Shown: in pieces, positions 43,012-64,000 of the stretch
Numbering within the stretch: the stretch's first letter is position 1
How the letters are laid out: every line of letters starts with the position of its first letter
Assembly (NCBI GenBank): GCA_035506535.1
Contig: DATJPE010000063.1
Location: 163,903-227,902, forward strand
Source: Actinomycetes bacterium
Lineage (GTDB): Bacteria; Actinomycetota; Actinomycetes; DATJPE01
Direction: 5' to 3'
DNA length: 64,000 nt
Position numbers and translations under genes: made by a program
Notes under the pieces: generated by a model
What the model saw: only the letters and a program-made list of their open reading frames with translations
Databases searched by the model: none
What the model was told of the DNA's origin: nothing

Positions 43012-43086
43012 GACGACCTCACTTCGCCGCGAAGGACCGCAGACGTGCGCAGTATCCGTCCGCCCGTCGCTTCGGTGTCAACGGCA

Positions 43087-43104
43087 CCTAAGCGAACGCT
43101 TAGG
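43087..43104 (+). promoter_or_regulatory. perfect inverted repeat CCTAAGCG-AA-CGCTTAGG upstream of coxM (candidate operator)
   Basis: 8-bp arms with a 2-bp spacer, read directly. It lies 76-93 nt upstream of the coxM ATG in the coxM/moaA divergent region, in a locally AT-richer patch. Confidence 0.35.
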
Positions 43105-43434
43105 GTCGCTGGACATCGGCGTCGCTCCTACCGACGATGCGGATGTGCCAGCGTCGGTCGACACCGCGGATCACCAAGCCGGACAAGGGTTCCGATGGCT
43201 TGCTGCGTGATCGTGCTGATGCTCGCCCGACGGCTCGGGAACGCCGCAAGTGCGGTGCCTGGACGCCTCTCGAGCCGCACCTGCGTCGGCCCCCTTTCGG
43301 CGGCGAGGACCGGATGTGGGCGTCGACTGGGCAGCGGTCCCCACCCCCTGGGCGGGGGACACTGTCGCGCGCGTCGCTTTGGTGCTCGAGGTCGCGACCT
43401 CACGCCGCTGTTCCGGCTCAGCGAGGTCCAGCCG

Positions 43435-44801: not shown

Positions 44802-44904
44802 CCCGCCGCCTCGGCAAGCCCTGCCTCGCGGGTGCCGGTTGAGGACCAAGGTCCCGGTGTCGCGGGCAGTTGGCCCGCGGCAGCGGCTGGCCGGAGGGGC
44901 CAGC

Positions 44905-46762: not shown

Positions 46763-46772
46763 GGAGGCCGTC

Positions 46773-47777: not shown

Positions 47778-49402
47778 TGGAGAAGCCCTTCGCGATCACC
47801 CTCGACGTGCGGTCCAGCCTGGCCAACCACACCGGCACCTGGCGCACCGAACGGCCGGTGTACGTCGACCGGGAGCCGCCGTGCAACGCGAACTGCCCGG
47901 CGGGCGAGGACATCCAGGGCTGGCTCTATGCCGCGGAGGACGGCAGCTACGAGGCGGCCTGGCGTCATCTGGTGGCCGTCAACCCCTTCCCCGCGGTGAT
48001 GGGCCGGGTCTGCTACCACCCGTGCGAGACGGCGTGCAACCGCGCGCAGCTCGACACCGCGGTCGGCATCAACTCCGTCGAGCGCTTCCTCGGCGACGAG
48101 GCGATCGCCCGCGGCTGGGACCTGCCGAGCCCGCAGGCCGGGACCGGCAAACGCGTCCTCGTCGTGGGCGCGGGGCCGTGCGGGCTCTCCGTCGCCTACC
48201 ACCTCCGGCAGGGCGGCCACGAGGTGGAGATCCACGACGCCGGCGACCAGGCGGGCGGGATGATGCGCTACGGCATCCCGACGTTCCGGCTTCCGCGGCA
48301 CATCCTCGACCACGAGATCGACCGGCTGCTGGCCACGGGCATCACGTTGCGCCCGAGCACGACGGTGACCGACCTGCTCGCCACCTTGCGCGACGGCGGC
48401 TTCGACGCCGCCTTCCTCGCCGTCGGCGCTCAGCTCAGCCATCGGACCTACGTCCCCGCGGGACAGTCCGCGCGCATCCTCGACGCGCTCGACGTCCTGG
48501 CGCGCACGGAGGGTGGCGAGCGCCCGCAGCTCGGCCGCCGGGTCGCGGTGTACGGCGGAGGCAACACCGCCATGGACGTCGCCCGGACCGCCCGTCGTCT
48601 CGGCGCCGACGAGGCCGTGGTCGTCTACCGGCGCACGCGCGAGCGGATGCCCGCCGACGACGTCGAGGTGCGCGAGGCGCTGGAGGAGGGTGTGCAGATC
48701 CGTTGGTTGTCGACGGTGAAGCACGCCGACGGCGGCCGACTGACGCTGGAGCGCATGGAGCTCGACGACGAGGGCGTGCCTCAGCCGACCGGTGAGTTCG
48801 ACGAGCTCGAGGCCGACTCCCTCGTCCTCGCGCTCGGCCAGGACGTCGACCACTCCCTCGTCGACTCGTTGCCCGGCGTTCAGGTCACCGACGGCGTCGT
48901 GCAGGTCGGTCCGGACATGATGACGGGCTACCCCGGGGTCTTCGCCGGCGGTGACATGGTCCCGTCGACCCGTTCGGTGACGGTCTCGATCGGGCACGGC
49001 CGTACGGCGGCCCGACACATCGACGCCTGGCTGCGGGGCGGCGCCGTCGAGCCGGCCGTCGAGCGCGAGCCGGCGGACTTCGAGCTGCTCAACACGTGGT
49101 ACTACAGCGACGCCCCGCGCACCATGCGCCCGAGGCTGGACGCGGCTCGCCGGGTCTCCGACTTCGCCGAGGTGGTCGGGGGGCTGGACTCCGAGACAGC
49201 GCTGTTCGAGGCGCGACGGTGCCTGTCGTGCGGCAACTGCTTCGGCTGCGACAACTGCGTGGGGGTGTGCCCGGACAACGCGGTCCTCAAGGTCGACGCG
49301 GCGCACGGCTACGCGATCGACTACGACTACTGCAAGGGCTGCGGCATCTGCGTCGAGGAGTGTCCCTGCGGCGCGATCACCATGGAGCCCGAGATCACCT
49401 GA
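47777..49402 (+). CDS. fusion protein: GltD-like FAD/NAD(P)H pyridine-nucleotide oxidoreductase with a C-terminal 2x[4Fe-4S] ferredoxin (POR delta-like) domain
   Basis: N-terminal Fe-S Cys motifs are CNANCPAGEDIQ and VCYHPCETACNRAQ. They are followed by dinucleotide folds (VLVVGAGPCGLS and VAVYGGGNTAMD). The C-terminus has two ferredoxin CxxCxxCxxxCP motifs (CLSCGNCFGCDNCVGVCP, CKGCGICVEECPCGA). A GTG at 47774 is an alternative start. Confidence 0.8.
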   Translation: MEKPFAITLDVRSSLANHTGTWRTERPVYVDREPPCNANCPAGEDIQGWLYAAEDGSYEAAWRHLVAVNPFPAVMGRVCYHPCETACNRAQLDTAVGINSVERFLGDEAIARGWDLPSPQAGTGKRVLVVGAGPCGLSVAYHLRQGGHEVEIHDAGDQAGGMMRYGIPTFRLPRHILDHEIDRLLATGITLRPSTTVTDLLATLRDGGFDAAFLAVGAQLSHRTYVPAGQSARILDALDVLARTEGGERPQLGRRVAVYGGGNTAMDVARTARRLGADEAVVVYRRTRERMPADDVEVREALEEGVQIRWLSTVKHADGGRLTLERMELDDEGVPQPTGEFDELEADSLVLALGQDVDHSLVDSLPGVQVTDGVVQVGPDMMTGYPGVFAGGDMVPSTRSVTVSIGHGRTAARHIDAWLRGGAVEPAVEREPADFELLNTWYYSDAPRTMRPRLDAARRVSDFAEVVGGLDSETALFEARRCLSCGNCFGCDNCVGVCPDNAVLKVDAAHGYAIDYDYCKGCGICVEECPCGAITMEPEIT

Positions 49403-49420
49403 CCCGCTCGGGAGCAGACC

Positions 49421-50776
49421 TCACATTCCGGCGATGGGCGGTAGCCCCGGGCGTCCTGCCGCCTCCTCGAGCTGAGCGGCCAGGCCGAGCAGCAGCCCCT
49501 CCCGACCGGGAGGGGCGACGAGCTGCACGGCGTACGGCGCACCGTCGGCTCGGGGCAGCGGCAGGGTGACCGCGGGATAGCCGGTCAGGTTCCAGGCCTG
49601 CGTGTACGGCGTCGTCGTCGCGCCCCACAGGTAGCTGCGCCAGTAGCCGGAGTCCCGCATCCCGCCCAGCCGGGCGGGAGCCCGGGCGACCGTCGGCGAC
49701 ACCAGGACGTCGAAGGTGCCGAACCACGCGTCCGCCGTGCGCGTCCAGGACGTACGCGCCTCGGCCGTGGGCCTCCCCCGGCGCCGCAGCCGTCGCCCCC
49801 GGCGCACCATGGCGAGGGTTCGCGGTTCCAGCCGAGTCTCGTCGAGACCCATGACCTCGACGTCCTCGGCGATCCCGGCCAGCCAGCACCGCCCCCAGTC
49901 GTTGGCCATGGTGAGCGGGTACGGCGGGTCGGCCGGGGTCGCCGCATGACCGGCCGCGGTCAGCAGCTCGACCGCGCGCCCGATCCCGGCCCGGGTGACG
50001 CCGTCGGGACGCGCGATCGGCACCGGTGCGCGCATCGACACCGCGACCCGCAGCGCCCGCGGCGGCACCGTGACCGATGTGACGGTCCGGCCGGCGAGGA
50101 CGTCGGTCACCGCTGACACGTCGGCGACCGACGACGCGATGGCGCCGAACACCGAGCAGCCGTACCAGTGCTCCTGCGCCCCACCGGCCAGCGGCACGAC
50201 AGCACGAGCCGGCTTGTAGCCGACAACGCCGCAGAAGGCGGCGGGGATCCGCAGCGACCCGCCGCCGTCGGACCCGAGCGCGACAGGGACCAGGCCCGCC
50301 GCGACCGCTGCCGCCCCGCCCCCGGTCGAGCCACCGGCGTTGCGAGAAAGGTCCCACGGGGTCGCCGTCCCACCGTGGGCGCGGCTTTCGGTGAAGCTCC
50401 AGATCGCCAGCTCGGGCAGCTTCGTCTTGCCCACCACCACGGCCCCCGCGTCGCGCAGGCGGCGCACCAGCTCGTCGTCCTTCTCGGCAGGAGCCGTTGT
50501 CGTCGCCCCGGAGCCGTATCTCGTGGGCAGCCCCTGGACGTCGACGTTGTCCTTGATCGCGACGGGTACTCCCGCCAGCGGGAGCCCGGCCAGGTCGCGG
50601 CGGGCGAGGTCACTCGCCTCTGCCCGCGCGGCATCGGCGCACACGATCTGGAACGCGCCGAGCCGCGGGTCGAGCGCCGCGATCCGGTCGAGGCACTCCT
50701 CGACGACCCGCGGCGCCGACGTCGGGTCGGCACGGACCTGTCCTGCGATGTCGGCGGCGGTGCGCGCAGGGGACAT
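49421..50776 (-). CDS. amidase (amidase-signature family)
   Basis: The Ser-cisSer-Lys signature region GGSTGGGAAAVAAGLVPVALGSDGGGSLRIPAAFCGVVGYKP is present. Confidence 0.85.
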   Translation of the reverse strand: MSPARTAADIAGQVRADPTSAPRVVEECLDRIAALDPRLGAFQIVCADAARAEASDLARRDLAGLPLAGVPVAIKDNVDVQGLPTRYGSGATTTAPAEKDDELVRRLRDAGAVVVGKTKLPELAIWSFTESRAHGGTATPWDLSRNAGGSTGGGAAAVAAGLVPVALGSDGGGSLRIPAAFCGVVGYKPARAVVPLAGGAQEHWYGCSVFGAIASSVADVSAVTDVLAGRTVTSVTVPPRALRVAVSMRAPVPIARPDGVTRAGIGRAVELLTAAGHAATPADPPYPLTMANDWGRCWLAGIAEDVEVMGLDETRLEPRTLAMVRRGRRLRRRGRPTAEARTSWTRTADAWFGTFDVLVSPTVARAPARLGGMRDSGYWRSYLWGATTTPYTQAWNLTGYPAVTLPLPRADGAPYAVQLVAPPGREGLLLGLAAQLEEAAGRPGLPPIAGM

Positions 50777-50878
50777 GGGTCAAGCCTGCTCCCAACTGCC
50801 GCGTCGCGGAACGCAGATGAGCACGCTGGTCTGCGGGGCCCCTTGTCCGACCGACCGGTCGGTCTCTAGAGTGCGGTC

Positions 50879-51901
50879 ATGGCGGCACTGCCCGGGCTCG
50901 ACCTCGACGTGCTCGGTGCCTGGATGGACACGGTTCACCCCGGGCTGCGAGCGGGACCGCTGCGGGGCGCCCTGCTGCCGGGGGGAAAGTCGAACCTGAC
51001 CTACCGGGTCGACGACGGGCGCTCGACCTGGGCGGTCCGGCGCCCGCCGCTGGGCCACGTCCTGCCCACCGCGCACGACATGGCGCGCGAGTTCCGCGTG
51101 ATCAGCGCGCTCGCCGCCACCGACGTCCCGGTGCCCCCACCGGTCGGCCTGTGCGAGGACGTCGAGATCCTCGGTGCGCCCTTCTATGTCATGCGATTCG
51201 TCGAGGGCGTGGTGCTGGACACCCCGGCGGCGATCGAGTCGGTGCCCGTCGATGCCGCCACCACCCTCAGCGAGCAGCTCGTCGACACCCTCGCCGCCCT
51301 CCACGCCGTCGACCCCGAACAGGTCGGCCTGGCGGACTTCGGGCGACCGGACGGCTTCCTGGCCCGGCAGGTCGCCCGCTGGCACAAGCAGTGGCAGGCC
51401 TCGCAGACGCGCGTACAGCCGCTCGAGCCCGAGGTCGTCGACCTGCTCACCCAGCGCCTTCCGGAGTCGGCGCCCGGCACGGTCGTGCACGGCGACTACC
51501 GGCTCAGCAACGTCATCGTCACCCCCGCCCTCGACGGCATCGCGGCGATCCTCGACTGGGAGATGGCGACGCTCGGCGACCCCCTGACCGACGTCGGTCT
51601 GCTCTACGTCTACCGCCGCGTCGCCGACGGCAGCAACACGATCCTGCCCCGGATGACGGTGGACCGGGGCTTCCCCGCCGCCGACGAGCTGGCCCGACGC
51701 TACGGGCGGGCCTCGGGCCGGGACCTGTCCACGCTCCCCTGGTACGTGGGCTTCGGCTACTTCAAGCTCGCCGTCATCGCCGAGGGCATCGCGGCTCGCT
51801 TCCAGCAGGGCAAGACGGTCGGCGAGGGGTTCGACCGCATCGGGGAGGCCGTACCCGGCCTGCTCGAGCACGCGCGCGGCGCTCTCGCCGCCCTGGACTG
51901 A
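50879..51901 (+). CDS. phosphotransferase-family (APH-like) kinase, ACAD10/11-type partner of the acyl-CoA dehydrogenase
   Basis: Brenner/APH motifs are present (VVHGDYRLSNVIV, ILDWEMATLGDPLTDVG). The gene lies immediately upstream of an ACAD. Confidence 0.75.
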   Translation: MAALPGLDLDVLGAWMDTVHPGLRAGPLRGALLPGGKSNLTYRVDDGRSTWAVRRPPLGHVLPTAHDMAREFRVISALAATDVPVPPPVGLCEDVEILGAPFYVMRFVEGVVLDTPAAIESVPVDAATTLSEQLVDTLAALHAVDPEQVGLADFGRPDGFLARQVARWHKQWQASQTRVQPLEPEVVDLLTQRLPESAPGTVVHGDYRLSNVIVTPALDGIAAILDWEMATLGDPLTDVGLLYVYRRVADGSNTILPRMTVDRGFPAADELARRYGRASGRDLSTLPWYVGFGYFKLAVIAEGIAARFQQGKTVGEGFDRIGEAVPGLLEHARGALAALD

Positions 51902-51915
51902 GCCGGGAACCAGCA

Positions 51916-53142
51916 ATGGACTTCACCCACAGCGAGCGCTCACGGCAGCTCCAGGCGGCGATGCACGCCTTCCTCGCCGAGCGGGTCTACCCCGCGGAGG
52001 AGGAGTTCGAGCGCGAGGCAGCCGCGCTGCGGGCCGCCGGCACACCGTTTCGCACGCCGGCGGTGATGGCTGACCTCAAGGCCGAGGCCCGCTCACGAGG
52101 GCTCTGGAACCTGTTCCTGCCGGACGCGGAGCACGGCGCCGGACTGTCCGTGCTCGACTACGCCCCGGTCGCGGAGCTGTCGGGACGCTCGCCGAGCATC
52201 GCTCCCGAGGCCATGAACTGCGCGGCTCCGGACACCGGGAACATGGAGCTGCTGGCGCTGTTCGGGACGGCGGAGCAGAGGGCCCAGTGGCTGGAGCCGC
52301 TGCTGGCGGGTGAGATCCGTTCCTGCTTCTCGATGACCGAGCCGGATGTCGCCAGCAGCGATGCCACGAACATCGCCACCCGCATCCGCGAGGACGGCGG
52401 GGAGTGGGTGGTCACCGGTCGCAAGTGGTGGTCCACCGGTGCCATGCGTCCGGAGTGCCGCATCGCGATCGTCATGGGGGTCACCGACCCCGACGCCGGA
52501 CGGGGCTCCCGCCACTCGATGATCCTCGTTCCGCTGGACACGCCCGGCGTCGAGGTCAGCGGTTCCACCACCGTGTTCGGCTATGACGACGGGCCGCACG
52601 GCGGACACGCCGTCATCGACTTCCGCAACGTGCGCGTCCCCGCGACGAGCCTGCTCGGCGAGCGCGGCCAGGGCTTCGCCATGGCGCAGGCGCGGCTCGG
52701 CCCGGGTCGGGTCCATCACTGCATGCGCAGCCTGGGCATGGCCGAACGCGCGCTCGAGGCGATGTGCGAGCGTGCCCTGTCTCGCAGTGCCTTCGGCGGC
52801 CCCATCGCCGCGCAGGGCGTCGTACGGGAGTGGATCGCGGAGTCGAGGCTGGCCCTCGACCAAGCCCGGCTGCTGGTGTTGAAGACCGCGTTCCTCATCG
52901 ACACCGTCGGCGTGCGGGCGGCTGCGACCGAGATCGCCGCGATCAAGGTCGCGGCACCGCGCGCGGCGTCGTACGTGCTCGACCGCGCCATCCAGGTGCA
53001 CGGCGGAGCGGGCGTCTCCGGGGACCTTGCCCAGGCATGGGCGGCGCTGCGCACGCTGCACCTCGCCGACGGCCCCGACGAGGTGCACCTACGGTCGGTG
53101 GCCAGGGAGGAGCTGCGGCGGCACACCGCGAGCGCCGGATGA
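51916..53142 (+). CDS. acyl-CoA dehydrogenase
   Basis: ACAD fold with a catalytic region near the C-terminus (QVHGGAGVSGD); 408 aa. Confidence 0.85.
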   Translation: MDFTHSERSRQLQAAMHAFLAERVYPAEEEFEREAAALRAAGTPFRTPAVMADLKAEARSRGLWNLFLPDAEHGAGLSVLDYAPVAELSGRSPSIAPEAMNCAAPDTGNMELLALFGTAEQRAQWLEPLLAGEIRSCFSMTEPDVASSDATNIATRIREDGGEWVVTGRKWWSTGAMRPECRIAIVMGVTDPDAGRGSRHSMILVPLDTPGVEVSGSTTVFGYDDGPHGGHAVIDFRNVRVPATSLLGERGQGFAMAQARLGPGRVHHCMRSLGMAERALEAMCERALSRSAFGGPIAAQGVVREWIAESRLALDQARLLVLKTAFLIDTVGVRAAATEIAAIKVAAPRAASYVLDRAIQVHGGAGVSGDLAQAWAALRTLHLADGPDEVHLRSVAREELRRHTASAG

Positions 53143-53726
53143 CCGTCTCGGAAACGGGCGTTCGCGACCGCGTGCTCGAGGCAGGAGTGCAGCTGTTCGC
53201 GGCCCAGGGCTATGACGCCACCAGCGTGGCGCAGATCGTCGCGATGGCGGGCGTGGCCAAGGGCGGCTTCTATCACCACTTCACGAGCAAGGAGCAGCTG
53301 CTCTACGCGGTCTACGGAGACCTGATCGAGCGTCAGCTGCTGGGGATGGACCGCATCCTCGCGGCGGGCAGGGGTCCGGCGGAGACGTTGCGGGCCCTGA
53401 TCCTCGACCTCGTCGAGACGACTGCCGAGCGCGCGCCGCAGGCACTCGTGTTCATGCGCGAGCGTCATCGTCTCGGTGACGAACGCACCGAGCAGTTCCG
53501 CGTCGCCAGACGGCGCTACCACGACGCCGTCGTCCGCCTGGTCCACGACGCCCAGGCCGACGGCAGGTTCTCCGCGGTCGCGTCGCCGGAGACCGTGACC
53601 CTCACCATCTTCGGTGTGATCAACGAGCTGCCAGTGTGGTACCGGCCGCGCGGCCGCAAGCAGCCACGACAGCTGGGCTCCGAGATCGCCGACTTCGTCC
53701 TGGCCGCATTGGAGCGCACGTCATGA
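53139..53726 (+). CDS. TetR family transcriptional regulator
   Basis: Its ATG overlaps the ACAD stop (ATGA). The HTH is GYDATSVAQIVAMAGVAKGGFYHHFTSKEQLL. Confidence 0.8.
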   Translation: MTVSETGVRDRVLEAGVQLFAAQGYDATSVAQIVAMAGVAKGGFYHHFTSKEQLLYAVYGDLIERQLLGMDRILAAGRGPAETLRALILDLVETTAERAPQALVFMRERHRLGDERTEQFRVARRRYHDAVVRLVHDAQADGRFSAVASPETVTLTIFGVINELPVWYRPRGRKQPRQLGSEIADFVLAALERTS

Positions 53727-54484
53727 GCATCCTCGACCTCTTCCGCCTCGACGACCGCGTCTCCATCGTCACTGGAGCATCCGCGGGTCTGGGGGTCTCC
53801 TTCGCCCGCGCCCTGGCCGAGGCCGGATCGGACGTCGTCGTGGCGGCACGGCGTACCGACCGCCTGGTCGCGACCCGCGACCTCGTCGAGGCGACCGGAC
53901 GCCGCTGCCTGGTCCTGCCTCTGGACGTCTCGCAGCCCGTGCAGTGCACGGCGGTCGTGGACGCCGCGGTGGCCGAGTTCGGCCGCGTCGACGTCCTCGT
54001 CAACAACGCCGGCATCGGCACCGCCGTCCCCGCGAGCCGCGAGACGCCGGAGGAGTTCCGCACCGTCATCGAGACCAACCTCAACGGCAGCTACTGGATG
54101 GCCCAGGCATGCGGTCGCGTGATGCGCCCGGGCAGCAGCATCATCAACATCAGCAGCGTGCTGGGGCTGAGGACGGGTGGACTGCCGCAGGCCGCCTACT
54201 CGGCGAGCAAGGCTGGCCTCATCGGTCTGACCCGTGACCTGGCGGCGCAGTGGACGGGACGCAAGGGGATCCGGGTGAACGCGCTCGCACCGGGCTTCTT
54301 CGCCTCCGAGATGACCGAGCTGTACCCGCCCGGATACCTCGACGCGATGCTGCCCCACATCCCCGTCGGCCGGCTCGGTCTCCACGAGGAGCTGGCGGCG
54401 GCCGTCGTGTTCCTCGCCAGCGACGCCGGCGGCTACGTGACCGGCCAGACCTTGGCCGTCGACGGCGGGATCACCATCGCCTGA
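53723..54484 (+). CDS. short-chain dehydrogenase/reductase (SDR)
   Basis: TGASAGLG cofactor motif, NNAG, and the catalytic YSASK. Confidence 0.85.
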   Translation: MSILDLFRLDDRVSIVTGASAGLGVSFARALAEAGSDVVVAARRTDRLVATRDLVEATGRRCLVLPLDVSQPVQCTAVVDAAVAEFGRVDVLVNNAGIGTAVPASRETPEEFRTVIETNLNGSYWMAQACGRVMRPGSSIINISSVLGLRTGGLPQAAYSASKAGLIGLTRDLAAQWTGRKGIRVNALAPGFFASEMTELYPPGYLDAMLPHIPVGRLGLHEELAAAVVFLASDAGGYVTGQTLAVDGGITIA

Positions 54485-54584
54485 CCGACCGCCTGCCGCC
54501 CCCACGACGGAGGCCGAGGTGAGACGACGAACGGAGCGAATCCCGCTGTCGTGAGCAGGCTCGGTCAGTCCCCCTCGACGAGCG

Positions 54585-54995
54585 TCAGCAGGTGCTGGAG
54601 ACCGCCGAGGCGAGCGCCTTGGCCGAGGTCGCGGTGGCGCCCACCGCGGTGGCGACGGCGGCCAGGCTCGTCACGCTGGGCGCGGCCTGGGCGGCCGAGA
54701 CGCTGGTCTGCAGCGAGGTCAGCGATGACGACAGCGCCGAGATCTCGCTGGCGTACTGCTGCTTGGCGTCGGCCTCGAGGGTCTGCAAGTCCCGCTGAAT
54801 CGTGGTCAGGTCGCTCTTGACGGTCGCGAGCGCGCCCTGGCCGATCGAGACGTTCTTCAGCGCCTGGACCGACGTCTGCAGGTTGTCCAGGTCGTTGCAG
54901 ACCGCGGGCTTGCCGCTGCCGCTGCCGCACCCCGTGACCATCGTGGCGAGCACCAGGTAGCCGGCCAACGTCGCACGCAGCGCGAGAGGTCTCAT
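54585..54995 (-). CDS. small lipoprotein of unknown function
   Basis: Signal peptide with lipobox (LVLATMVTGC), then an Ala/Ser/Thr/Leu/Gln-rich mature part of low complexity. Confidence 0.5.
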   Translation of the reverse strand: MRPLALRATLAGYLVLATMVTGCGSGSGKPAVCNDLDNLQTSVQALKNVSIGQGALATVKSDLTTIQRDLQTLEADAKQQYASEISALSSSLTSLQTSVSAAQAAPSVTSLAAVATAVGATATSAKALASAVSSTC

Positions 54996-55057
54996 GGTCA
55001 GATCCTCGCAGCCGGCCGCCCGCCCGACGGACCCAGGTCAGCCTCACCCGGGCGCCG

Positions 55058-55342
55058 TCACGCGTTCGAGTGGTCGAGCTCGAAGGTCTCGTACGGGATG
55101 GGCGGACCGCCGACCATGGCCTGCTCCATCACACCCGCGTCGGCGAAGGCCTTCATGATCACTGGGGTGAACTCCTCGATCGCGGTGCGGCTCTCCCAAA
55201 CGTCGACAATCTGAATACGCCCGTCGGGCAGCTGCGCGGCAGCGTGGATCAGCCGTCCGGCCGGGCGCTCGCCTCCCAGGGCCACCAGGACGGAGTCGTA
55301 CGCCGCTCGGCTCGGGGCTTCGGAGACCTGCACGAATGCCAT
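55058..55342 (-). CDS. small ABM/Dabb-like alpha+beta barrel protein (tentative)
   Basis: 94 aa. The ATG at 55342 follows GGAGAG. The ...IVDVWESRTAIEEF... motif resembles the ABM family. Confidence 0.45.
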   Translation of the reverse strand: MAFVQVSEAPSRAAYDSVLVALGGERPAGRLIHAAAQLPDGRIQIVDVWESRTAIEEFTPVIMKAFADAGVMEQAMVGGPPIPYETFELDHSNA

Positions 55343-55376
55343 CGTCTCTCCTCATCTTAGTTTGTCGCTAGAGTCC

Positions 55377-55412
55377 GTCACTAGTGGGTGACACGAGTAA
55401 TGTGACCGTCAC
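55377..55412 (+). promoter_or_regulatory. two palindromic operator-like sites, GTCACTAGTGGGTGAC (55377-55392) and GTGACCGTCAC (55402-55412), in the divergent region between the ABM-like gene and the TetR gene
   Basis: Read directly from the sequence. They share a GTGAC/GTCAC half-site and sit in a 71-bp intergenic gap overlapping the TetR 5' end. Confidence 0.45.
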
Positions 55413-55413
55413 T

Positions 55414-56070
55414 ATGACTCCTGTCAAGAGCTCGCGAGCTGGCGCGTCGCGCAAGGAGCAGGCACGCACGACGGCCCTGCGGATCGTCCGAGCCGCCCAT
55501 ACGCTCTTCATCGAGCGGGGATACACCGGCACGCGGATGGCCGATGTCGCCGACGCGGCAGGGGTAGCCGTCCAGACCGTGTACTTCCGGTTTCACACCA
55601 AGGCGGAGCTGCTCCATGCCTGCTACGAGCTGGCCGTGCTCGGCGAGGACGACCCGCGTCCCCCGATGGAACAGGCCTGGTTCGCGATGTTCGTGTCGGC
55701 ACGATCCGGCCCGGCCGCCATCCGCGCCTTCGCGGAGGGCAACACCGGGATCGCCACGAGGGTCGGCCAGCTCGACGACATCGTGCGCAGCGCCGTGCAC
55801 GAGCCGGAGGCCGTCGAGGTACGCCGGCGCAGCGAACAACTGCGGCGCGACGGTTACCGGCAGATGCTCCAGTCGCTCCACGATCGCTTCGGGCTGCGCG
55901 ACGGGCTGGACGTGCAGCGGGGGACCGACCTCCTCCTCGCCTTCGGAGGGACCGCGCTATGGCGCCCTCTCGTCGTCGAGTACGGCTGGACGACCGAGGA
56001 CTTCGTCGGATTGCTCACGGACGTCCTGTGCGACCAGCTCCTGCCACCCCGGCGCCGCCGGGCCCGCTGA
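55414..56070 (+). CDS. TetR family transcriptional regulator
   Basis: ATG at 55414; the longer GTG ORF from 55384 would cover the operator sites. The HTH is GYTGTRMADVADAAGVAVQTVYFRFHTKAELL. Confidence 0.75.
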   Translation: MTPVKSSRAGASRKEQARTTALRIVRAAHTLFIERGYTGTRMADVADAAGVAVQTVYFRFHTKAELLHACYELAVLGEDDPRPPMEQAWFAMFVSARSGPAAIRAFAEGNTGIATRVGQLDDIVRSAVHEPEAVEVRRRSEQLRRDGYRQMLQSLHDRFGLRDGLDVQRGTDLLLAFGGTALWRPLVVEYGWTTEDFVGLLTDVLCDQLLPPRRRRAR

Positions 56071-57076
56071 TCCGCGAGCCTGCCGCGCGCAGCCCGGCGG
56101 CCCACCCCGGGGCTCTGCCCAGGCCCGGCGGGTCGACCCCGCTCAGCTCGTGGCCGCTTCTGGCGAGGAGCCAGGACACGAGGCTGTTGGAGTTCCACAT
56201 CTCCCCGTAGCCACGTTCGTCGCGCCCCCACGTCAGGGTCGGGAACGAGGCGGCGAGGTCGAGCAGCGCGCGTACGCGCGATGAGTCCGTGGACAGCCGC
56301 ATCGGGGGACCGACACGCGCGTCGAGATCGGGGATGACCCCGTCGCGCCAGAGCCGAACCTCGTAGCGAAACCAGCGCGATCGCCCCCAGGACCTGAGCC
56401 CCACGGGCCCCGAGCAGACGACACCGCGGTCGCCACGGGGCCCTGACCAAGCGGGTGCCATCTCGACGGTGTACGGAACACCGTCCGCTGTCACCTCGAG
56501 CGCCGAATGGAAGAGCTGGCCGGGCCGGCGATGGTCGCGCCACGACTGGAGGAGCTCGAAGAGACGGCCACTCGCGCGGACCAGGCCGATCCGGTCGCCG
56601 GCCCCGAGCGGGATCCAGGACAGCGCGACCGACCAGCCGCGCGTGCAGAGCACGGCGACCACCTCGTCGGCTGCGCGCCCGACGGCGGCGGCCACGGCCT
56701 CGGACAGCTCGGACCCGACCGCGACGCTCGCCGCCTCGACGCCGACCACGGTGAGCCGAGCGGGCAGGCGGCCCAGGCCCCGGGCCAGCTCGATCGACTC
56801 GCGGACGCCGAACCCGTGGGTGCCTCCGGCACGGGGCGGGGACCGCTCGGCGGCCTGGTCCACGACGACAGATCCCGGCGGTCGGCCGGAGCGGATCGCG
56901 TCGACGACGACGACGTCGTCCCAGCCCTGCCAGGCGTCCACGAGCCGAGTGGGGACGGGGACGGCCATGAGCTCCAGGTCAGGCGTCGCGCGGCGGCGCA
57001 GCTCCTCGACCACCGCCAAGCCGACGCCGTCGTCCCCCCGGTACGGATTGCCGACTCCCACCACGAGCGCCCTCAC
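56015..57076 (-). CDS. hydrogenase maturation endopeptidase (HyaD/HybD family) carrying an additional ~190-aa C-terminal domain of unknown function
   Basis: The GTG at 57076 overlaps the large-subunit stop (GTGA). The translation is (M)[26 protein letters not shown]...DAIRSG, and the protease domain ends near residue 150. The frame continues uninterrupted to 56015. Confidence 0.65.
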
Positions 57077-58383
57077 GAGCGGTCCACCGTCACGTCGAGG
57101 AAGTGCGTCGCGCAGGAGATGCACGGGTCGTAGTTGCGGATCGCCTGCTCGCAGCGGCGGGTGAGCTCCTCGTCGTCGAGAGCGAGATTGGCCTGGGTGA
57201 AGCTCAGGAGGTCCGCCTCGATGCTCGCCTGGTTCTGCGACGTTGGCGGGACGATGCGGGCGTCGAGGATCGAGCCGTCGGCGTCGATCTCGTACCGGTG
57301 GAAGAGCACCCCGCGAGGCGCCTCTGTCGCGCCGTAGCCGACGCCGGCCCGCGGCGCCACCTCCACCGACGGTGCCGAGGCACCGGTCCAGCCGTCGATG
57401 ATGGCCAGCGCCTCCTCGCAGGCGTAGACGGTCTCCACTGCGCGCACGACGATGGAGCGGAACGGGTTGCGGCAGGGGGCGCCGAGCCCCGCCTCACTGG
57501 CTGCCTCCGCCGCACGTGGTGAGAGCCGGTCGGCGTTGAGCGCGTACCGCGCGAGGGGGCCCACGGCGTAACGTGCGCCGGACCCGGCGAGGTGCGAGTG
57601 CAGCGCGGTCGATCGTGCGACGTGCTCCTCGACGACGTGTCGGTCCAGCTCGGCGGCGTCGAAGGCCAACCCGCCCGTGGTCGTCACGCGACCACGCTCC
57701 AGCGGATAACCTTCGCCGGGCGCGCGCAGCGCGAGGTACTCGTGCGGCTGCTCGAAGACGGGGAACGCGAAAGTTCCCACGAGGCGGACTGTCTCCAGCG
57801 CGTCATCGAGCGCCTGTGCGAGCGCCGGACGGAGGTCGTCGAGCTCCTCACGGTGGGGCAGGCGATAGAAGCCGCCGACACGGACGTTCACCGGATGGAC
57901 GGAGCGACCGCCCACCAGGGTCATGAGCGCGTTGCCCGCCTTCTTCAGCCGCAACCCTCGCTCGACGACCTCGCGGTGGTCGCGCGCGAGGTCGATCGCG
58001 CTGTCGTAGCCGAGGAAGTCGGGGGCGTGCAGGAGATAGACGTGCAGCGAATGGCTCTCGATCCACTCGCCGCAGTAGAGCAACCGCCGCATGCGCCGGA
58101 TCTCGTCGGGAACCTCGACACCGCACGCCGCCTCGATGGCCTGGCAGGCACTCATCTGGTAGGCCACCGGGCAGATTCCGCAGATGCGCGCGGTGATGTC
58201 CGGCGCCTCCACGAACGAGCGTCCACGCAGCAGCGCCTCGAAGAACCTGGGCGGCTCGTAGATCCTCAGTTCGACCTCGGTGACCCGCCCGTCGACCACC
58301 CGGACGTGCATCGCCCCCTCGCCCTCGACGCGTGCCAGCGCGTCGACGCGCAGCAGGTGGTCACCGTCATGCGCGTGAGTCAT
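57073..58383 (-). CDS. [NiFe]-hydrogenase large (alpha) subunit, cytoplasmic group-3-like
   Basis: ATG at 58383 follows GGAGGAGG. The N-terminal motif is [10 protein letters not shown]. The C-terminal [18 protein letters not shown] has the DPCxxCxxH Ni-Fe site plus a short extension that the protease would remove. Confidence 0.9.
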
Positions 58384-59161
58384 GCGTGTCGGCCTCCTCC
58401 CGGAAGGCGGGCGCCTCGGCGGTGAACGTACGCAGGATCCGGACCACATCCGGCTCGCCCATCCCGTTCTCGAGCAGCCGCCCGACGAGCGACCCGACAT
58501 TGACGCCCGGGGCAGGCCCGAAGCACCCGTAGCAGCCTCGAGCGCAGGACGGGCACAACGCGCCGCAGCCGGACTGGGTCACCGGTCCGAGGCACGCCTG
58601 TCCGTGCGCGACGACGACGCAGACGTTGCCGCGACGCTTGCAGTCCGCGCAGACCGTCTCGGCCGGGATGCGCGGCGTACGTCCGTCCAGGTACGCCACG
58701 ACCACCTCGAGAAGCTGTCGCCGGTCGACCGGGCACCCGTGCAGCTCGAAGTCCACCGGCACGTGGGCGGAGATCGGCGTGGACCGGGCCAAGGTGTCGA
58801 TGTACTCGGGGCGGGCGTAGACGAGCGAGGTGAACTCGCCGACGTCGGCGAAGTTGCGTAGCGCCTGGATGCCCCCGCTGGTGGCGCAGGCGCCGATCGA
58901 GACGAGTCGGCGCGAGGCCCGTCGGATCTCCTGGACGCGTTCCAGGTCTGCGGGGGTCGTGATGGACCCTTCGACCAGCGACAGGTCGTAGGGTCCGTCG
59001 ACGTGGGCGCTGGAGGCCTCGGTGAAGTGTGCGATCTCGACGGCGTCGGCGAGCAGGAGCAGCTCGTCCTCGCAGTTCAGCAGGGTCAGCTGGCAGCCGT
59101 CGCAGGACGCGAACTTCCACACGGCCAGCCGTGGGCGAGCCGTCGCACCTCGAATCGTCAT
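58367..59161 (-). CDS. [NiFe]-hydrogenase small (delta) subunit, cytoplasmic type (no Tat signal)
   Basis: 264 aa. The proximal-cluster Cys motifs are FASCDGCQ and GACATSGG. There is no twin-arginine signal or C-terminal anchor. The ATG at 59161 overlaps the gamma stop (ATGA). Confidence 0.85.
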
Positions 59162-59967
59162 CACAGCCCCCGCATCGTCATGAGGGTGCGCGCGCGGTCG
59201 TAGCCGAGAACCGGGCCGTCGACGCACACGAACACCTCGCGAAGCTGGCAGTGACCGCAGAGCCCCACACCGCAGCGCATGTTGCGCTCCATGGACACCC
59301 GGATCTGCGACGGCACGACGCCCCGACGTACGAGCGCGTCTGCCGTGAGACGCATCATGACCTCCGGGCCGCACACGAGCACCAGAGTCGCGGCCGGGTC
59401 GAGGTCGGGCAGCACGTCGGTCACCAGGCCGACGTTGCCACGCCACGACGGCTCTCCGGCATCGACGGTCACCACGACGTCGAGATCGTCGCGAGCGGCC
59501 CACTCCTCCAGCTGAGGTCGGTAGAGCAGGTCGGTAGGTGTTCGGCTGCCGACGACGACGACGACACGACCGTAGCGCTCGCGGTGCCGCAGCACTGCGA
59601 GGACGACCGGGCGCACGGGGGCAAGGCCGATCCCGCCGGCCACCACGAGGACGTCTCCGTCGGTACCGCTCTCCTCCTCCCAGCCCCGACCGTACGGGCC
59701 CCGCGCGAAGACCGGATCGCCCACCGCGCAGCGCGTCAACGCGGCGGTCGCGTCCCCCACCGCCCGAACCGTGTGCATGAGACGCGCTGGCTCGTCAGGG
59801 TCGCCGCTGATGGAGATGGGTACCTCGCCGAAGCCCGGGCGGCCCACCATGGCGAACTGGCCCGGCCGGAACGCCATGGGGATGCCATCCACCGGTGCCA
59901 GCCCGAGCGTGACCGTGTCATGGGTCTCGGCTTGGACGTCCAGCACGGTGAACCGCCGCGGGAGCAT
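59161..59967 (-). CDS. hydrogenase gamma subunit: FNR-like FAD/NAD(P)-binding oxidoreductase with a C-terminal [2Fe-2S] motif
   Basis: ATG at 59967. The FAD-binding barrel ([22 protein letters not shown]) and NAD-binding domain ([11 protein letters not shown]) are followed by a C-terminal Cys cluster (CGVGLCGHC). Confidence 0.8.
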
Positions 59968-59995
59968 CGGCTCCGGCGGGGCGGGGCGAGTCCGC

Positions 59996-60463
59996 TCAGC
60001 GAGCACTCGGGGCCCCGTAGAGGTCGAGCAGGCGGACACGCGCCGACATCATCCGGTCGTGCATGGCACGCGCGAGTCTCTGCAGCATCAGGTACCCGAC
60101 CCGCGGGTCCTGGTCGCACTTCTCGCGCAGGCAGCCTGCGTCGAGAGCCACCGCGCTCGTGGACGACAGCGCCCGGGCGTCCATCGAGTGCCGGTACGGC
60201 GGGAACAGCCACGACAGGCCGACCACGCTGCCCGGGCCCTGCGTCTCCACGATGAGCCGCCGCTCGCCGGGTCCCTGGATCTCGATCGCGACCGAGCCAC
60301 CGCGCAGTAGGAAGAAGGTCTCGGCCGGGTCGTCCGCGCGGAACAGGTACTCGTCGGCGTCGAAGTGCCGGTTCAGCGCGCAGCCGGCGAGATGACGCAC
60401 GGTCTCCTCGTCGAGGTCCACGAAGAACGGGTGCCCCGCGATCAGCTGCTCGACGCTTCTCAT
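59996..60463 (-). CDS. cyclic-nucleotide-binding (Crp-type effector) domain protein without a DNA-binding domain
   Basis: 155 aa. The cNMP-binding beta-roll is [46 protein letters not shown]. It sits between the hydrogenase beta and gamma genes on the same strand. Confidence 0.7.
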
Positions 60464-60465
60464 GC

Positions 60466-61569
60466 TCAGCCGTCCTCTCCGCTCGCGCGGCGCAGCGCGG
60501 CGAGCTCCTGCGTGACGTCGATGCCGACCGGGCACCAGGTGACGCAGCGGCCACAGCCGACGCAGCCGCTGGTCCCGAACTGGTCCTGCCAGGAGGCGAA
60601 CTTGTGGGTCAGCCACTGGCGGTAACGCGACGCGGTCGATGCCCGCACCGGCTGACCGTGCATGAGCGAGTGCCCGCTGGTGAAGCACGAGTCCCACACA
60701 CGGTCCCTCGAGACGGACTCGGCCAGGCCCGTCGGTTCGACGGTCGTGACGCAGAAGCACGTCGGGCAGACCATCGTGCAGTTCCCGCAGGACAGGCACC
60801 GCGAGGCGACGTCGTCCCAGTGCGGGTCGTCGGCGCTCGCATAGATCAGGTCGCGGATGTCGGTCGTGTCGACGGCGCGCCCCATCGACGCAGCCGCCCG
60901 GGCCGCGACGGCCTCGGACGCGGCCAGGTCCTCCTCAGCCGCGATGCGGCTGGGGAGATCCGCCAGCAGCGAGGCGCCGGCATCGGTCCCCGCCTCGGCG
61001 ACGAAGCGATGCCCCTCGTCATCGAGGATCTCGGTCAGCGCGACGTCATACCCGCTGTCGGGCCGCGGGCCGGACCCCATCGACACGCAGAAGCAGGTTC
61101 CGCCGGGAACAGCGCACGTGACGGCGACGACGAACGTGCGGCTGCGGCGCTCGGCGTAGTCGGGATCGGCGTACTGCCGGCCGGTCAGGACGGTGTCGAG
61201 GACGGCGAGCGCCCGCAGGTCGCACGAGCGCACTCCGATGAGCGCGCGCGGGACCCGGTCCAGCGGCTCCGCGGTGGGTTCACCGTCGTCGGCCGCACGC
61301 CAGAGAGTCCGCTGCGATGGGAAGAGATAGGCCTTCCACGTGCTCACCGTCGCCGCCTGGTCGAAGAGGCGCGACTCCGCCGTCCGCTCGGCGCGGTAGC
61401 GCCCGGGGGACTGCTCGTCCCGGACCCCTCGCGGCAGGTCGTCGACGCCCGAGATCGGCGCCAGGACCACCACGCCGTCCCGAAGCGTCGGCCCGATCAG
61501 GGTGAAGCCGCGTCCGGCCAGAGTGTCCAAGAGCGCACCCAGTCCGGCGACGTCCACAACGGCGGCCAT
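60466..61569 (-). CDS. hydrogenase beta subunit: iron-sulfur (4Fe-4S dicluster) protein
   Basis: ATG at 61569 follows AGGAG. Ferredoxin-type motifs are [16 protein letters not shown] and [12 protein letters not shown]. Confidence 0.8.
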
Positions 61570-61684
61570 GGCGCTCCTACGAGGTCGACAGGCACACGAT
61601 CGGATCCGGCGCGGGACCGACAGACCCATGGTGTCGCGCCGCGCGCCACCCGGACAGGGTCACTGGTCCCCCACGTGCACGCGT

Positions 61685-61715
61685 CCCCGGGGGGGTCAGA
61701 TCCCCCCGGGGCCCC
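61685..61715 (-). terminator. strong GC hairpin (CCGGGGGG-gtcagat-CCCCCCGG) downstream of dabA; intrinsic-terminator-like, without a U tract
   Basis: Perfect 8-bp GC stem with a 7-nt loop at 61687-61709. On the transcribed strand it lies 38-60 nt after the dabA stop, in the 177-bp gap before the hydrogenase operon. Confidence 0.35.
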
Positions 61716-61746
61716 TCGAGAGGCAGAACCGACCCGCCGCTCGAGA

Positions 61747-64000
61747 TCAGAGGTCCTCCCGCGCGAGCGGCACGAGTGCTCGACGGGTCGGTGAGTGCTC
61801 CTCCCAGAGGCGCCAGTCGAGGCGACGGGTCAGCCGCCAGGCGCTGGCGTCGAACGGATCGATGGCCGCGACCGCGACCCAACCGTTGGCCACCAGGCGG
61901 GCCAGCAGGTCGTGGGAGCCGACGATCTCGCCGACCCGGCGAGGGGTGGCCCAGACGACGATCAGCTCACGCAGGGGCTCGTGCCGGCGCTCGCTCGTCG
62001 GGTGGCCCGGCGCGCCATCGAACAGCGCCTGCCACGGCAGGCCGAGCCGGAGATCACCATGAGCCCCGGTGAGCACGCCCACCTCCCCGACGACGTTGTG
62101 CGTCGACTTGTCCCCCGCGCCCAGGACGCCGGGGTCGACGGTCGACGCGTAGTACTGCGCGTTGATCCACTGGGTGACAACGGCCGGCGCCGTGAGGATC
62201 GAGGCGAGGATCGATCCGTCGGGGTCGAGCGCCGGGTCGTAGGAGTGCAGGAACACCCGGCCGTCCAGGTCGAGGCCCCGCGTGAGGGACCGCGGACCGA
62301 TGACGAAGGCTGCGTTGCCGGCCAGGCCCCACTCCGGCGCCGGCTCCGCCCAGTCGAGCGCCCGGGCGCGGACGTGCCTGGTGAGCGCGGCCGGCGCGGA
62401 TCCCGGGCGAGGCGCGCCGGGCAGGGACCCGGCACGCTCCGCACGCACGGCCCGCCCGGCGGCGCCGAGGGCCTCGCGCAGCGTCGCGACCCGTTCGGAG
62501 TACGCGGGAAACGGCGCGAACGCCGGGTCGAGCTCGACCTCGTCGGTCGTCGTGTCGTGGGCAGCCGCAACGGCCACGGTCGAGTCCGGCAGCCGGATGC
62601 CGTCGGCCGCAAGGGTCTCGCGCACCGTTGGGTCGTTGAGCACCTCGGCCAGGACTCGGGCGTTGACGTGACCACCGTTGCCGCCGCAGGCGCCGCAGTC
62701 GTAGGCGGTCGCAAAGGCGTTGTTCTCGACTGTGGCGGCATGCCCGCAGATCACCAGCAAGGGCGCGAAGTCCTCGACCAGACCGATGGTGCGCAGTGCT
62801 CCGGCGGCGAGCGCGACCCGTTGTCCATGGGTCATCCCGACCGGCAGCCCGGTATGCACCCGCCCGTGGCCGTCGGATCGTGTCGTGTCTGCAGGGATAC
62901 CCCAGCGGTCGGGCAGAGTCCACCGCTTCGACAGGCGATGCCACAGGCGTGGGGCCGCGGTCTGGACGACCGCCGCGACGCCGGCGAGCCAGCCGGTGGC
63001 CTCGGCGACGAGCAGCGGCGTCAGCGGTGCTGCTCCGATCCCCAGGGCGGCACCACGGACGGGCGGGCGGAGGCCGTCCGGCCGCGGTTGCGCGACGACG
63101 GCGAAGCTGGGCTCGAGGAGAGCCGGGCACTGGTCGAACTCGGCGCCATCGCCGGTGACATGGCGCAGCGCGGCGCCGAAGAACCCGGCGAAGCCGTACG
63201 TCGCGAACGGCCCCTGCGCCTCGAGAGCGCGACGTAAACGCTCCGAGCGGACGTCGATGCAGAAGACAGCCTGAGCCAGCGGGACAGGCCGCTTCTCCTC
63301 CAGTGAGCGACACGCAGATGCCAGTGTCTCACCACCAGCGCGAAGGTCGTCGAGAAGCGGTCGGCGGAAGCCCGCCTCGAGGGCTCGCTGCCAGGTCTCG
63401 CAGCGCGAGAGCTCCGCCGGATCCACCGGCTCGTCGTCGGCCCGGGCCCTCAGGGTGTTTGTCGCGTCGCCGACGAGGAGCAGCTCGAGTACGACCCGCA
63501 CAACAGCGAGCTCCAGCACTGGCGTCGGGTCAGCGAAGACGCGCGCGCGCCACTGGGCGTGAGCCGTCCAGCCCGGAAGGCCGCTCAGCAACCGGGTCAG
63601 GTACTCGACGATCATCGTTTCGTCGATGCCGGCGCGGCTGCACAGGAGGGCAAGCGCCTCGGCGGGATCCTCGGGGAGGCCCTCGATGAGGCGACTGGCC
63701 CCGCGCAGGCCCAGAGCCCCGTCGTACGCGCTGTGCACGCACGTCTGGCGGAGCCGCACCCACGGGCCCGAGCCGTTCGACGCGGTCCCCGACCACGCGC
63801 GCTGGCACCACCAGGCGGCGTGCTCGTCGGATGTCTCGGAGGAATCGGGTCGGCGCTTCGCGTCCGCGGGAGCGGGCTCGCGGGACGCGGCGCAGCGAGC
63901 GGTGCGGACGAGCGACTCGACCATGGCGTCGAGGTTGGCCCCTGGGGCCGGGATCCCTCGGTCCACGAACTGCTCGACCAGCGCCTCTCTCAGGTCGGCG
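61747..64000 (-). CDS. dabA: DabA (DUF2309/UPF0753), putative CA-like subunit of a DAB-type energy-coupled inorganic-carbon pump; 5' end lies outside the window
   Basis: The frame stays open to the window edge. The translation contains DabA-family metal-site motifs (VFCIDVRSE and ICGHAATVEN...YDCGACGG) and a C-terminal YYASTVDPG...GAGDKSTHNV region. Confidence 0.8.
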   Translation of the reverse strand, partial: ADLREALVEQFVDRGIPAPGANLDAMVESLVRTARCAASREPAPADAKRRPDSSETSDEHAAWWCQRAWSGTASNGSGPWVRLRQTCVHSAYDGALGLRGASRLIEGLPEDPAEALALLCSRAGIDETMIVEYLTRLLSGLPGWTAHAQWRARVFADPTPVLELAVVRVVLELLLVGDATNTLRARADDEPVDPAELSRCETWQRALEAGFRRPLLDDLRAGGETLASACRSLEEKRPVPLAQAVFCIDVRSERLRRALEAQGPFATYGFAGFFGAALRHVTGDGAEFDQCPALLEPSFAVVAQPRPDGLRPPVRGAALGIGAAPLTPLLVAEATGWLAGVAAVVQTAAPRLWHRLSKRWTLPDRWGIPADTTRSDGHGRVHTGLPVGMTHGQRVALAAGALRTIGLVEDFAPLLVICGHAATVENNAFATAYDCGACGGNGGHVNARVLAEVLNDPTVRETLAADGIRLPDSTVAVAAAHDTTTDEVELDPAFAPFPAYSERVATLREALGAAGRAVRAERAGSLPGAPRPGSAPAALTRHVRARALDWAEPAPEWGLAGNAAFVIGPRSLTRGLDLDGRVFLHSYDPALDPDGSILASILTAPAVVTQWINAQYYASTVDPGVLGAGDKSTHNVVGEVGVLTGAHGDLRLGLPWQALFDGAPGHPTSERRHEPLRELIVVWATPRRVGEIVGSHDLLARLVANGWVAVAAIDPFDASAWRLTRRLDWRLWEEHSPTRRALVPLAREDL

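Follow-up and report, generated by a model that had tools for sequence, protein, structure and literature searches.

A dabA-type reading frame at the edge of an actinomycete contig segment belongs to a dabB-dabA gene fusion, most likely encoding an ion-gradient-driven CO2 hydratase

The window analysed here is a stretch of 64,000 nt from an Actinomycetes bacterium (assembly GCA_035506535.1, contig DATJPE010000063.1, positions 163,903 to 227,902). At its right-hand end lies an open reading frame (ORF) related to dabA, which is cut by the window edge. Very probably, this ORF is the C-terminal part of a natural single-polypeptide DAB complex, in which a NuoL-like DabB module and a DabA module are joined in one chain, and which would operate as an ion-gradient-driven, one-way CO2 hydratase.

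The ORF is located on the minus strand, ends with a TGA stop (61747-61749) and remains open for 750 codons up to base 64000, with no stop upstream. The GC content of its three codon positions (0.77/0.56/0.87) is typical of coding sequence within a window of 71.5% GC, and the long plus-strand ORFs found opposite to it are the usual antisense artefacts of high-GC DNA. Comparison with Pfam gave a match to the DabA family PF10070 with E=9.8e-182 and 606.6 bits (cutoff 25), in which residues 75-708 of the fragment correspond to positions 132-747 of the 747-position profile; since the match begins at profile position 132, the N-terminus of DabA is cut off by the window edge. The fragment also aligns to PDB 9rd0_A, the DabA2 chain of Halothiobacillus neapolitanus, with E=2.5e-89, while no NCBIfam model matches it. 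The three DabA motifs quoted in the initial annotation (CIDVRSE, HAATVENNAFATAYDCGACGG and YYASTVDPG) are all present in the ORF, and its description as a partial dabA running off the edge was borne out. By these sequence comparisons the DabA identity of the ORF is confirmed, well outside what chance would give. Its extent, together with the part covered by the Pfam match, is as follows.

61747..64000, minus strand: C-terminal 750 codons and stop of the fused dabB-dabA gene (residues 566-1315 of 1,315), defined by the open frame, PF10070 and identity to contig L081 (see below).
61876..63777, minus strand: PF10070-matched part of DabA (fusion residues 640-1273), comprising the last part of the helical N-terminal domain together with the two beta-carbonic-anhydrase-like domains, defined by Pfam and by the alignment to 9rd0_A.

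The sequence beyond base 64000 was obtained from a 285-kb ENA metagenome contig, referred to as L081, which was reached via the protein cluster of the TetR gene of the window. L081 is colinear with window positions 45384-64000, with 99.887% identity over 18,617 nt (window coordinates are obtained by adding 45,383 to those of L081), and runs on for 2,070 nt further. It contains a single uninterrupted ORF of 1,315 codons, starting with an ATG at window-equivalent position 65694, which spans both the DabB and the DabA modules. The 750 amino acids encoded in the window are identical (750/750) to residues 566-1315 of the L081 protein, so that the window holds the back 57% of the gene. Pfam domains PF00361 (residues 102-371, 99 bits) and PF10070 (residues 502-1273, profile positions 1-747 of 747, 657.2 bits) were found in the L081 protein, and the best PDB matches were the two chains of the DAB2 complex, i.e. 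DabA2 (9rd0_A, E=7.8e-93, residues 500-1295) and DabB2 (9rd0_B, E=6.6e-31, residues 3-441), followed by many NuoL/ND5 chains. The NuoL-like DabB module, a membrane unit of many helices, covers about residues 1-480, and the cytoplasmic DabA module about residues 482-1315. The initial annotation had placed a partner gene dabB just past base 64000 and proposed to extend the sequence in search of a PF00361 gene: a PF00361 module does lie there, in a contig 99.89% identical to the window, but as the N-terminal half of the same ORF rather than as a separate, adjacent gene.

The same architecture recurs in related genomes. Open frames of at least 1,270 aa across both modules were found in 17 related actinobacterial loci (L001-L016, L018), including Sporichthyaceae, Aquipuribacter, Humibacillus, Terracoccus, Tessaracoccus and Nocardioides; 14 of the 17 measure 1,278-1,404 aa, the other three being longer stop-to-stop frames. 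Of 80 related loci, 79 have a DabB-like module ahead of DabA. Among the 120 best protein matches, 64 carry more than 420 residues N-terminal to the DabA domain, and the majority are actinobacterial proteins of about 1,250-1,310 aa with both Pfam domains; by these matches, DabA itself is not unusual in an actinobacterium. In a rough neighbour-joining tree of the DabA domain the window sequence nests within the fused clade, where the few short entries are mostly partial proteins or derive from short contigs. From related loci, protein matches and tree, the fusion is judged to be genuine and not an assembly error, and the fused form is the rule in a large actinobacterial clade. The protein search with the 750-aa fragment returned no DabA relative above 54% identity, but did not return the 100%-identical 1,315-aa product of L081 either, so that the lack of close matches is no proof of their absence; the best dabA match among GTDB representative genome contigs shows 52% identity.

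Conservation of the functional residues was evaluated on an alignment of 122 homologs, and the coordinates of the corresponding codons were checked in the window. The following elements of the DabA module were located.

63247..63261, minus strand: CIDVR motif, with zinc ligand Cys812 (63259-63261), Asp814 (63253-63255) and Arg816 (63247-63249), equivalent to DabA2 Cys351, Asp353 and Arg355.
62920..63057, minus strand: membrane-inserting finger/elbow hairpin, about residues 880-925, identified by alignment and hydropathy, with Glu898 (63001-63003) equivalent to DabA2 Glu444.
62695..62742, minus strand: zinc ligands His985 (62740-62742) and Cys1000 (62695-62697), within H-AATVENNAFATAYD-C-GACGG, equivalent to DabA2 His524 and Cys539.
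62323..62325, minus strand: Leu1124 in DW(AEP)APEWGL, equivalent to DabA2 Leu658.

In DabA2, Cys351, His524 and Cys539 are the zinc ligands and Asp353 and Arg355 form a dyad (10.64898/2026.03.13.711513); cryo-electron microscopy (cryo-EM) and mutagenesis of DAB2 have identified Ala376, which enlarges the active-site pocket, and Leu658, a hydrophobic residue in place of the Gln/His of ordinary beta-carbonic anhydrases, as DAB-specific pocket residues, and have found Glu444, in the membrane finger, to be essential. The columns of Cys351, Asp353, Arg355, Ala376, His524, Cys539 and Leu658 are invariant in 122/122 homologs, the window equivalents being C812, D814, R816, A836, H985, C1000 and L1124. 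All three zinc ligands, whose comparison with Halothiobacillus DabA2 had been advised beforehand, are thus kept. At the Glu444 column, E is found in 109/122 sequences and D in 13/122; the window protein has E898, and a hydrophobic segment was detected at residues 892-910, within the finger hairpin, by a hydropathy scan. The coupling motifs described for DAB1, namely GI(A/G)GFFG, NN....DCGACGG and DW(xxx)RPEWGL (10.64898/2026.05.01.722082), have their counterparts in the window as GFAGFFG, ENNAFATAYDCGACGG and LDWAEPAPEWGL; the Arg ahead of PEWGL is replaced by Ala in the window protein and by Gln in the consensus of the fused clade.

Most residues of the ion path are also kept in the DabB module of the L081 protein. 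The transmembrane (TM) helix 8 His and the His/His/Lys set of TM11 (H215, H294, H298, K302) are invariant in 66/66 sequences, and the TM5 Asp of the ion pair (DabB2 Asp185, NuoL Asp178) is found as D145. Its TM7 partner is changed, as detailed below, and Ile151 of DabB2 corresponds to a Thr. Compared with DabB2, the module begins about 45 residues later and ends near DabB2 residue 481-497, without the C-terminal tail and the short lateral helix; a Pro/Ala/Arg-rich linker of about 30-50 residues leads into the N-terminal domain of DabA.

With the solved DAB2 and DAB1 complexes as models, the product of the gene is most likely a one-way CO2 hydratase, driven by an ion gradient, that supplies bicarbonate to the cytoplasm. 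CO2 would diffuse into the cell and reach the buried zinc active site of DabA, a single Cys2-His site of the beta-carbonic-anhydrase type, while a two-helix hairpin of DabA would be inserted beside DabB. A flow of ions, most likely H+, the coupling ion of DAB2, through the DabB module would drive conformational changes, which would make the hydration effectively one-way, so that HCO3- would build up in the cytoplasm above equilibrium. The accumulated HCO3- would be consumed by bicarbonate-dependent carboxylases or, should the organism possess such a route, by a CO2-fixing pathway. The single-chain topology is mechanistically plausible, because an engineered DabB2-DabA2 fusion is active: it rescues an Escherichia coli strain deficient in carbonic anhydrase as well as the two-gene form does (10.64898/2026.03.13.711513, PMC13144422).

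Several points weigh against this assignment. The DabB half lies outside the window and is known only from the near-identical metagenome contig, and the TM topology of the module is an estimate, from a crude hydropathy scan in which 16 overlapping hydrophobic windows were merged into about 11-14 segments. The TM7 Lys (NuoL K229, DabB2 K235) is replaced by Arg190 (codon at L081 19742-19744, outside the window), and by Arg in 65/66 fused homologs, so that the TM7 Lys/TM5 Asp pair is not preserved; in the 80 related loci this position is Arg in 23 actinobacterial or Bacillota sequences, Gln in 55 haloarchaeal ones and Lys in only one, from a proteobacterial metagenome-assembled genome (MAG). Because of this replacement, coupling details may differ from those of DabB2. 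It is however no argument against membership in the family, because alanine substitution of the ion-pair residues of DAB2 cut the growth yield by just 30-60%. The Staphylococcus aureus homolog MpsAB has been argued to use Na+, natural fusions are noted in the literature but no functional characterisation of any was found, and the physiological role of the fused gene in its host is a guess.

The Na+ argument leads to a first, unlikely alternative: that the protein, as a bicarbonate transporter of the MpsAB type, imports HCO3- together with Na+ instead of hydrating CO2 vectorially under the drive of H+. In its favour, S. aureus MpsAB, a member of the same homologous family, has been proposed to work by Na+/HCO3- symport, fused homologs are entered in some NCBI records as 'Na-translocating system protein MpsB', and the TM7 Arg of 65/66 fused homologs indicates an ion pathway not identical to that of DabB2. 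Against these points, the strict conservation of a beta-carbonic-anhydrase-type zinc site, of the Asp-Arg dyad and of the DAB-specific Leu would be hard to explain for a pure HCO3- symporter, the proton-path residues of TM8 and TM11 (His and His/His/Lys) are invariant, and DAB2 takes CO2 as its substrate with sodium-independent activity. We therefore keep to the one-way hydratase, and infer H+ as its more probable coupling ion.

The fused gene, hereafter dabBA, seems to carry its own regulatory apparatus. In L081 a small protein of the winged helix-turn-helix (wHTH) type is encoded divergently upstream of it.

L081 20312-20687, beyond the window end, divergent from dabBA: small winged-helix regulator.

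The protein gives weak matches to MarR_2 and HTH_24, but no curated family accommodates it and no close relative was found in PDB. It recurs divergently upstream of the fused gene in 14 of 16 relatives (L001, L003-L006, L008-L011, L013, L014, L016, L018, L042), with a strongly conserved core W(T/R)FLTNHGHVL...GRRNxY...RHP. Eleven of 12 loci have a TANNNT-like hexamer 5-7 nt ahead of the start codon of dabBA; the source sequence reads TAATAT-gcttcct-ATG, with the -10-like hexamer 7 nt before the start, a position that suggests a leaderless dabBA mRNA. AT-rich repeats of the ACAYGT type are common to several loci, and the 107-bp divergent spacer of the source contains a GCCGAT-N3-ATCGGC palindrome. 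Because of the conserved divergent regulator and the promoter-like signal, dabBA looks, as far as can be read from sequence, like a self-contained unit of regulator and pump.

Downstream of dabBA, on the same strand, lies the operon of a group 3b [NiFe]-hydrogenase, which is reported as genomic context and not as part of the DAB system. The intervening spacer and the genes of the operon are listed below.

61570..61746, minus strand: dabBA-hyhB spacer, 177 nt, with two G+C-rich hairpins lacking a U tract.
56015..61569, minus strand: group 3b [NiFe]-hydrogenase operon, assigned by Pfam, PDB and NCBIfam.
60466-61569, minus strand: hyhB, Fer4_22 domain, ATG at 61569 preceded by an AGGAG Shine-Dalgarno sequence.
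59996-60463, minus strand: gene for a cyclic nucleotide monophosphate (cNMP)-binding protein of 155 aa.
59161-59967, minus strand: hyhG, NAD_binding_1 and DHODB_Fe-S_bind domains.
58367-59161, minus strand: hyhS, Oxidored_q6 domain.
57073-58383, minus strand: hyhL, NiFeSe_Hases domain, with the Ni-Fe motifs RICGIC and DPCISCATH.
56015-57064, minus strand: hycI-like maturation protease gene.

The best PDB matches of HyhL are the alpha subunit of Pyrococcus sulfhydrogenase I (9nez, 9e15; E=1.6e-72) and the cytosolic hydrogenase of Thermococcus kodakarensis (5yxy). In NCBIfam, the alpha, beta and delta subunits are best matched by Shy/Hyd sulfhydrogenase models and the gamma subunit by AsrB first, then by HydG/ShyC, all below the equivalog cutoffs. 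These matches identify the enzyme, at the sequence level, as a cytosolic, NAD(P)-linked, bidirectional group 3b hydrogenase of the sulfhydrogenase-like kind. Of the H2-oxidising neighbour announced in the initial annotation, the presence of a four-subunit [NiFe]-hydrogenase was upheld, but by its PDB and NCBIfam matches it is of the group 3b type and not a dedicated H2-uptake enzyme.

Some features of this operon were noted in passing. A cNMP-binding gene sits between hyhB and hyhG in nearly every related hyh operon fetched (L082-L087, L089-L092, L094-L099, L101, L103), and looks like a conserved fifth gene of the actinobacterial group 3b hydrogenase operon. The HycI-like ORF encodes 349 aa, compared with 148-156 aa in its relatives. 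Its match to HycI is confined to about 130 residues at the N-terminus; the C-terminal stretch of about 210 residues is not of low complexity and has no Pfam match, and 56 nt are shared by the end of the ORF and the 3' end of the TetR gene. A hypC gene follows hycI in L082 and L084 and is absent from the window. To the left of the operon lie the TetR gene and an acyl-CoA dehydrogenase gene.

Two further groups of redox genes are contained in the window. About 19 kb from dabA, a form I carbon monoxide dehydrogenase (CODH) is encoded; its CoxL subunit contains the AYACSFR motif and reaches 1434 bits with the TIGR02416 model, whose cutoff is 991, which makes the CO-oxidising enzyme mentioned in the initial annotation a genuine form I CODH.

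35630-44801: form I aerobic CODH cluster (coxL, coxM, coxE, moaA), in which coxS was not expressly located.
35630-36868: coxE.
42133-43077: coxM.
43626-44801: moaA.

At about 44755-49402, on the plus strand, genes were observed for a 2-oxoacid:ferredoxin oxidoreductase (OFOR; POR gamma, POR_N/PFOR_II, TPP_enzyme_C), followed by a Fer4_20/Pyr_redox_2 flavoprotein resembling GltD, NfnB and SudA. OFOR, flavoprotein and group 3b hydrogenase together resemble the Pyrococcus-type ferredoxin/NADPH/H2 set.

The dabBA stop is located 177 nt 5' of the hyhB start, and a consensus scan of positions 59800-62200 found neither a sigma-70 promoter nor an intrinsic terminator; the folding of the spacer is no better than that of shuffled sequence (z=-0.48). 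Conservation of this arrangement was evaluated from both sides. No Hyh subunit was found within 10 kb of dabA in the 80 related loci, and dabBA was not found 5' of hyhB in any of the 12 related hyh loci whose upstream sequence was usable (L082-L084, L088-L093, L099, L101, L103); a metagenome scan with HyhB yielded 14 loci, mostly short ones. The position ahead of hyhB varies in content, being occupied by a SulP/STAS transporter, by a Fer4_11/Prismane/CooC-like/Pyr_redox_2 cluster, by succinate-dehydrogenase-like genes, by a 2-oxoacid_dh acyltransferase, or by nothing related. Many relatives of HyhL were found at 70-78% identity, as against none above 54% for DabA, a gap that suggests separate histories for the two sequences. 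The direct position of dabA upstream of the hydrogenase operon, and the unusual context that had been claimed for it, are real (177 nt, same strand), but the adjacency is not conserved. Since it recurs neither in the 80 dabA loci nor in the 12 hyh loci, it gives no comparative support for a functional link, and from these comparisons it is most likely a lineage-specific accident of gene order.

Three observations on the slot and the spacer were recorded. In L082 the SulP/STAS transporter gene (5091-6731), of a family that includes bicarbonate transporters, takes the slot that dabBA takes in the window, and in L083 a cluster of Fer4_11, a split Prismane (CooS/HCP-like), a CooC-like and a Pyr_redox_2 gene (2292-6863) abuts hyhB; the candidate rule that an inorganic-carbon gene recurs 5' of hyhB (DabBA in the window, SulP in L082, CooS-like in L083) was rejected, being not repeated in ten further loci. 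The sequence GGGTCACTGGTCCC, at 61657-61670 in the spacer, differs by one mismatch from the core GGGAC-N4-GTCCC, which we take to be the mycobacterial DosR box. As a link to hypoxia this palindrome was dropped, because the pattern has 8 matches in the window, with 9.6 expected.

These data bear on a second alternative, which we hold to be quite improbable: that dabBA works with the group 3b hydrogenase in a CO2/H2 module, to which OFOR and CODH might also belong. Such a module would capture the CO2 given off by CO oxidation or by fermentative H2 evolution under hypoxia, or would provide inorganic carbon for H2-driven reductive carboxylation. The shared strand, the 177-nt gap with no recognisable terminator, and the presence within 20 kb of the OFOR and NfnB/GltD-like genes and of form I CODH are consistent with it, as are the single occurrences of SulP/STAS and of the Fer4_11/Prismane/CooC-like cluster in the hyhB slot of related loci. 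They are opposed by the absence of the pairing in 80 dabA loci (within 10 kb) and in 12 hyh loci, by the unrelated genes which fill the slot in most loci, by the regulator and promoter-like signal that dabBA has of its own, by the separate histories suggested by the HyhL and DabA identities, and by the two strong hairpins which follow the dabBA stop. We infer that dabBA is independent of the hydrogenase downstream. Also hard to credit is a broader proposal, in which the fused actinobacterial DabBA would be a class of vectorial carbonic anhydrase with a mechanism and a regulation of its own, marked by a single chain, a trimmed DabB C-terminus, the TM7 Arg, a dedicated divergent wHTH regulator and a leaderless-type promoter, and would have been recruited here 5' of the hydrogenase for coupling the capture of inorganic carbon to NAD(P)H/H2 redox balancing; it would then, for example, trap CO2 from OFOR or CODH activity, or feed H2-driven carboxylation.

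Comparison with the known systems shows where the fused protein, read as an ion-driven hydratase, stands. Both of its modules are homologous to those of H. neapolitanus DAB2 (PDB 9rd0, 9rd8, 9rd9; Desmarais et al. 2018/2019; Lo et al. 2026), with which it shares the zinc ligands, the Asp-Arg dyad, Ala376, Leu658, the finger Glu, the TM8 His and TM11 His/His/Lys of DabB, and the lack of an adjacent DabC-like gene. It differs from DAB2 in being one polypeptide instead of the product of two genes, in having Arg for the TM7 Lys235, Thr for Ile151 and Ala for the Arg of DW(xxx)R, in the later start of DabB (by about 45 residues) and the linker that replaces its C-terminal tail, and in its setting: an uncultured high-GC actinomycete, a divergent wHTH regulator and no carboxysome context in the window. 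The engineered DabB2-DabA2 fusion used for cryo-EM has the same order, DabB then DabA in one chain, but is artificial, the stop having been removed and the genes joined directly, whereas the fusion described here is natural, fixed in a large clade and provided with a trimmed DabB C-terminus. A natural fused mpsA-mpsB homolog has been mentioned in Acidimicrobium ferrooxidans (Fan et al. 2019, PMC6689103), and DabA and DabB have been described as 'in some cases fused into one long protein' (10.64898/2026.05.01.722082); the A. ferrooxidans protein is alike in its natural single-gene architecture and in its phylum, Actinomycetota, a likeness drawn from its description and not from sequence comparison. 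In the lone Acidimicrobiia MAG locus that was fetched (L056), the open frame measures 827 aa and is not fused.

S. aureus MpsAB and the DAB1 system of Thermocrinis albus (DabABC) belong to the same PF00361 plus PF10070 family. MpsAB, which can stand in for the carbonic anhydrase of a heterotroph under atmospheric CO2 (PMC6689103), differs in being encoded by two genes and in the Na+ coupling proposed for it. DAB1 shares the coupling motifs, but needs a third small subunit, DabC. Judged by gene order, no DabC-like small membrane-protein gene adjoins dabBA, its flanks being the divergent regulator and hyhB; no DabC profile exists. DAB operons more commonly consist of two genes, and separate dabA frames of about 810-830 aa were seen in the fetched haloarchaeal and other distant loci, but a stand-alone dabA followed by its own dabB gene just beyond base 64000 is practically excluded, and was rejected, since the ORF of L081 is unbroken over both modules and all the nearest relatives are fused.

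DAB/MpsAB systems were already known in heterotrophs and in Actinobacteria, and the findings on fused dabBA do not overturn present understanding. The new points are modest, and concern the size and uniformity of the actinobacterial fused clade, the TM7 Lys-to-Arg replacement, the trimmed DabB C-terminus and the conserved divergent regulator. Among known energy-coupled CO2 pumps the DAB complexes are the simplest, and they are candidate parts for engineered carbon-concentrating mechanisms in crops and industrial microbes; a natural one-gene form removes the need to balance two subunits, and shows that parts of DabB, namely the C-terminal lateral helix and the tail, are dispensable. The Lys-to-Arg replacement at the canonical antiporter position provides a ready-made test of coupling models, and the conserved divergent regulator offers a handle on the sensing of inorganic carbon in heterotrophic or mixotrophic actinobacteria.

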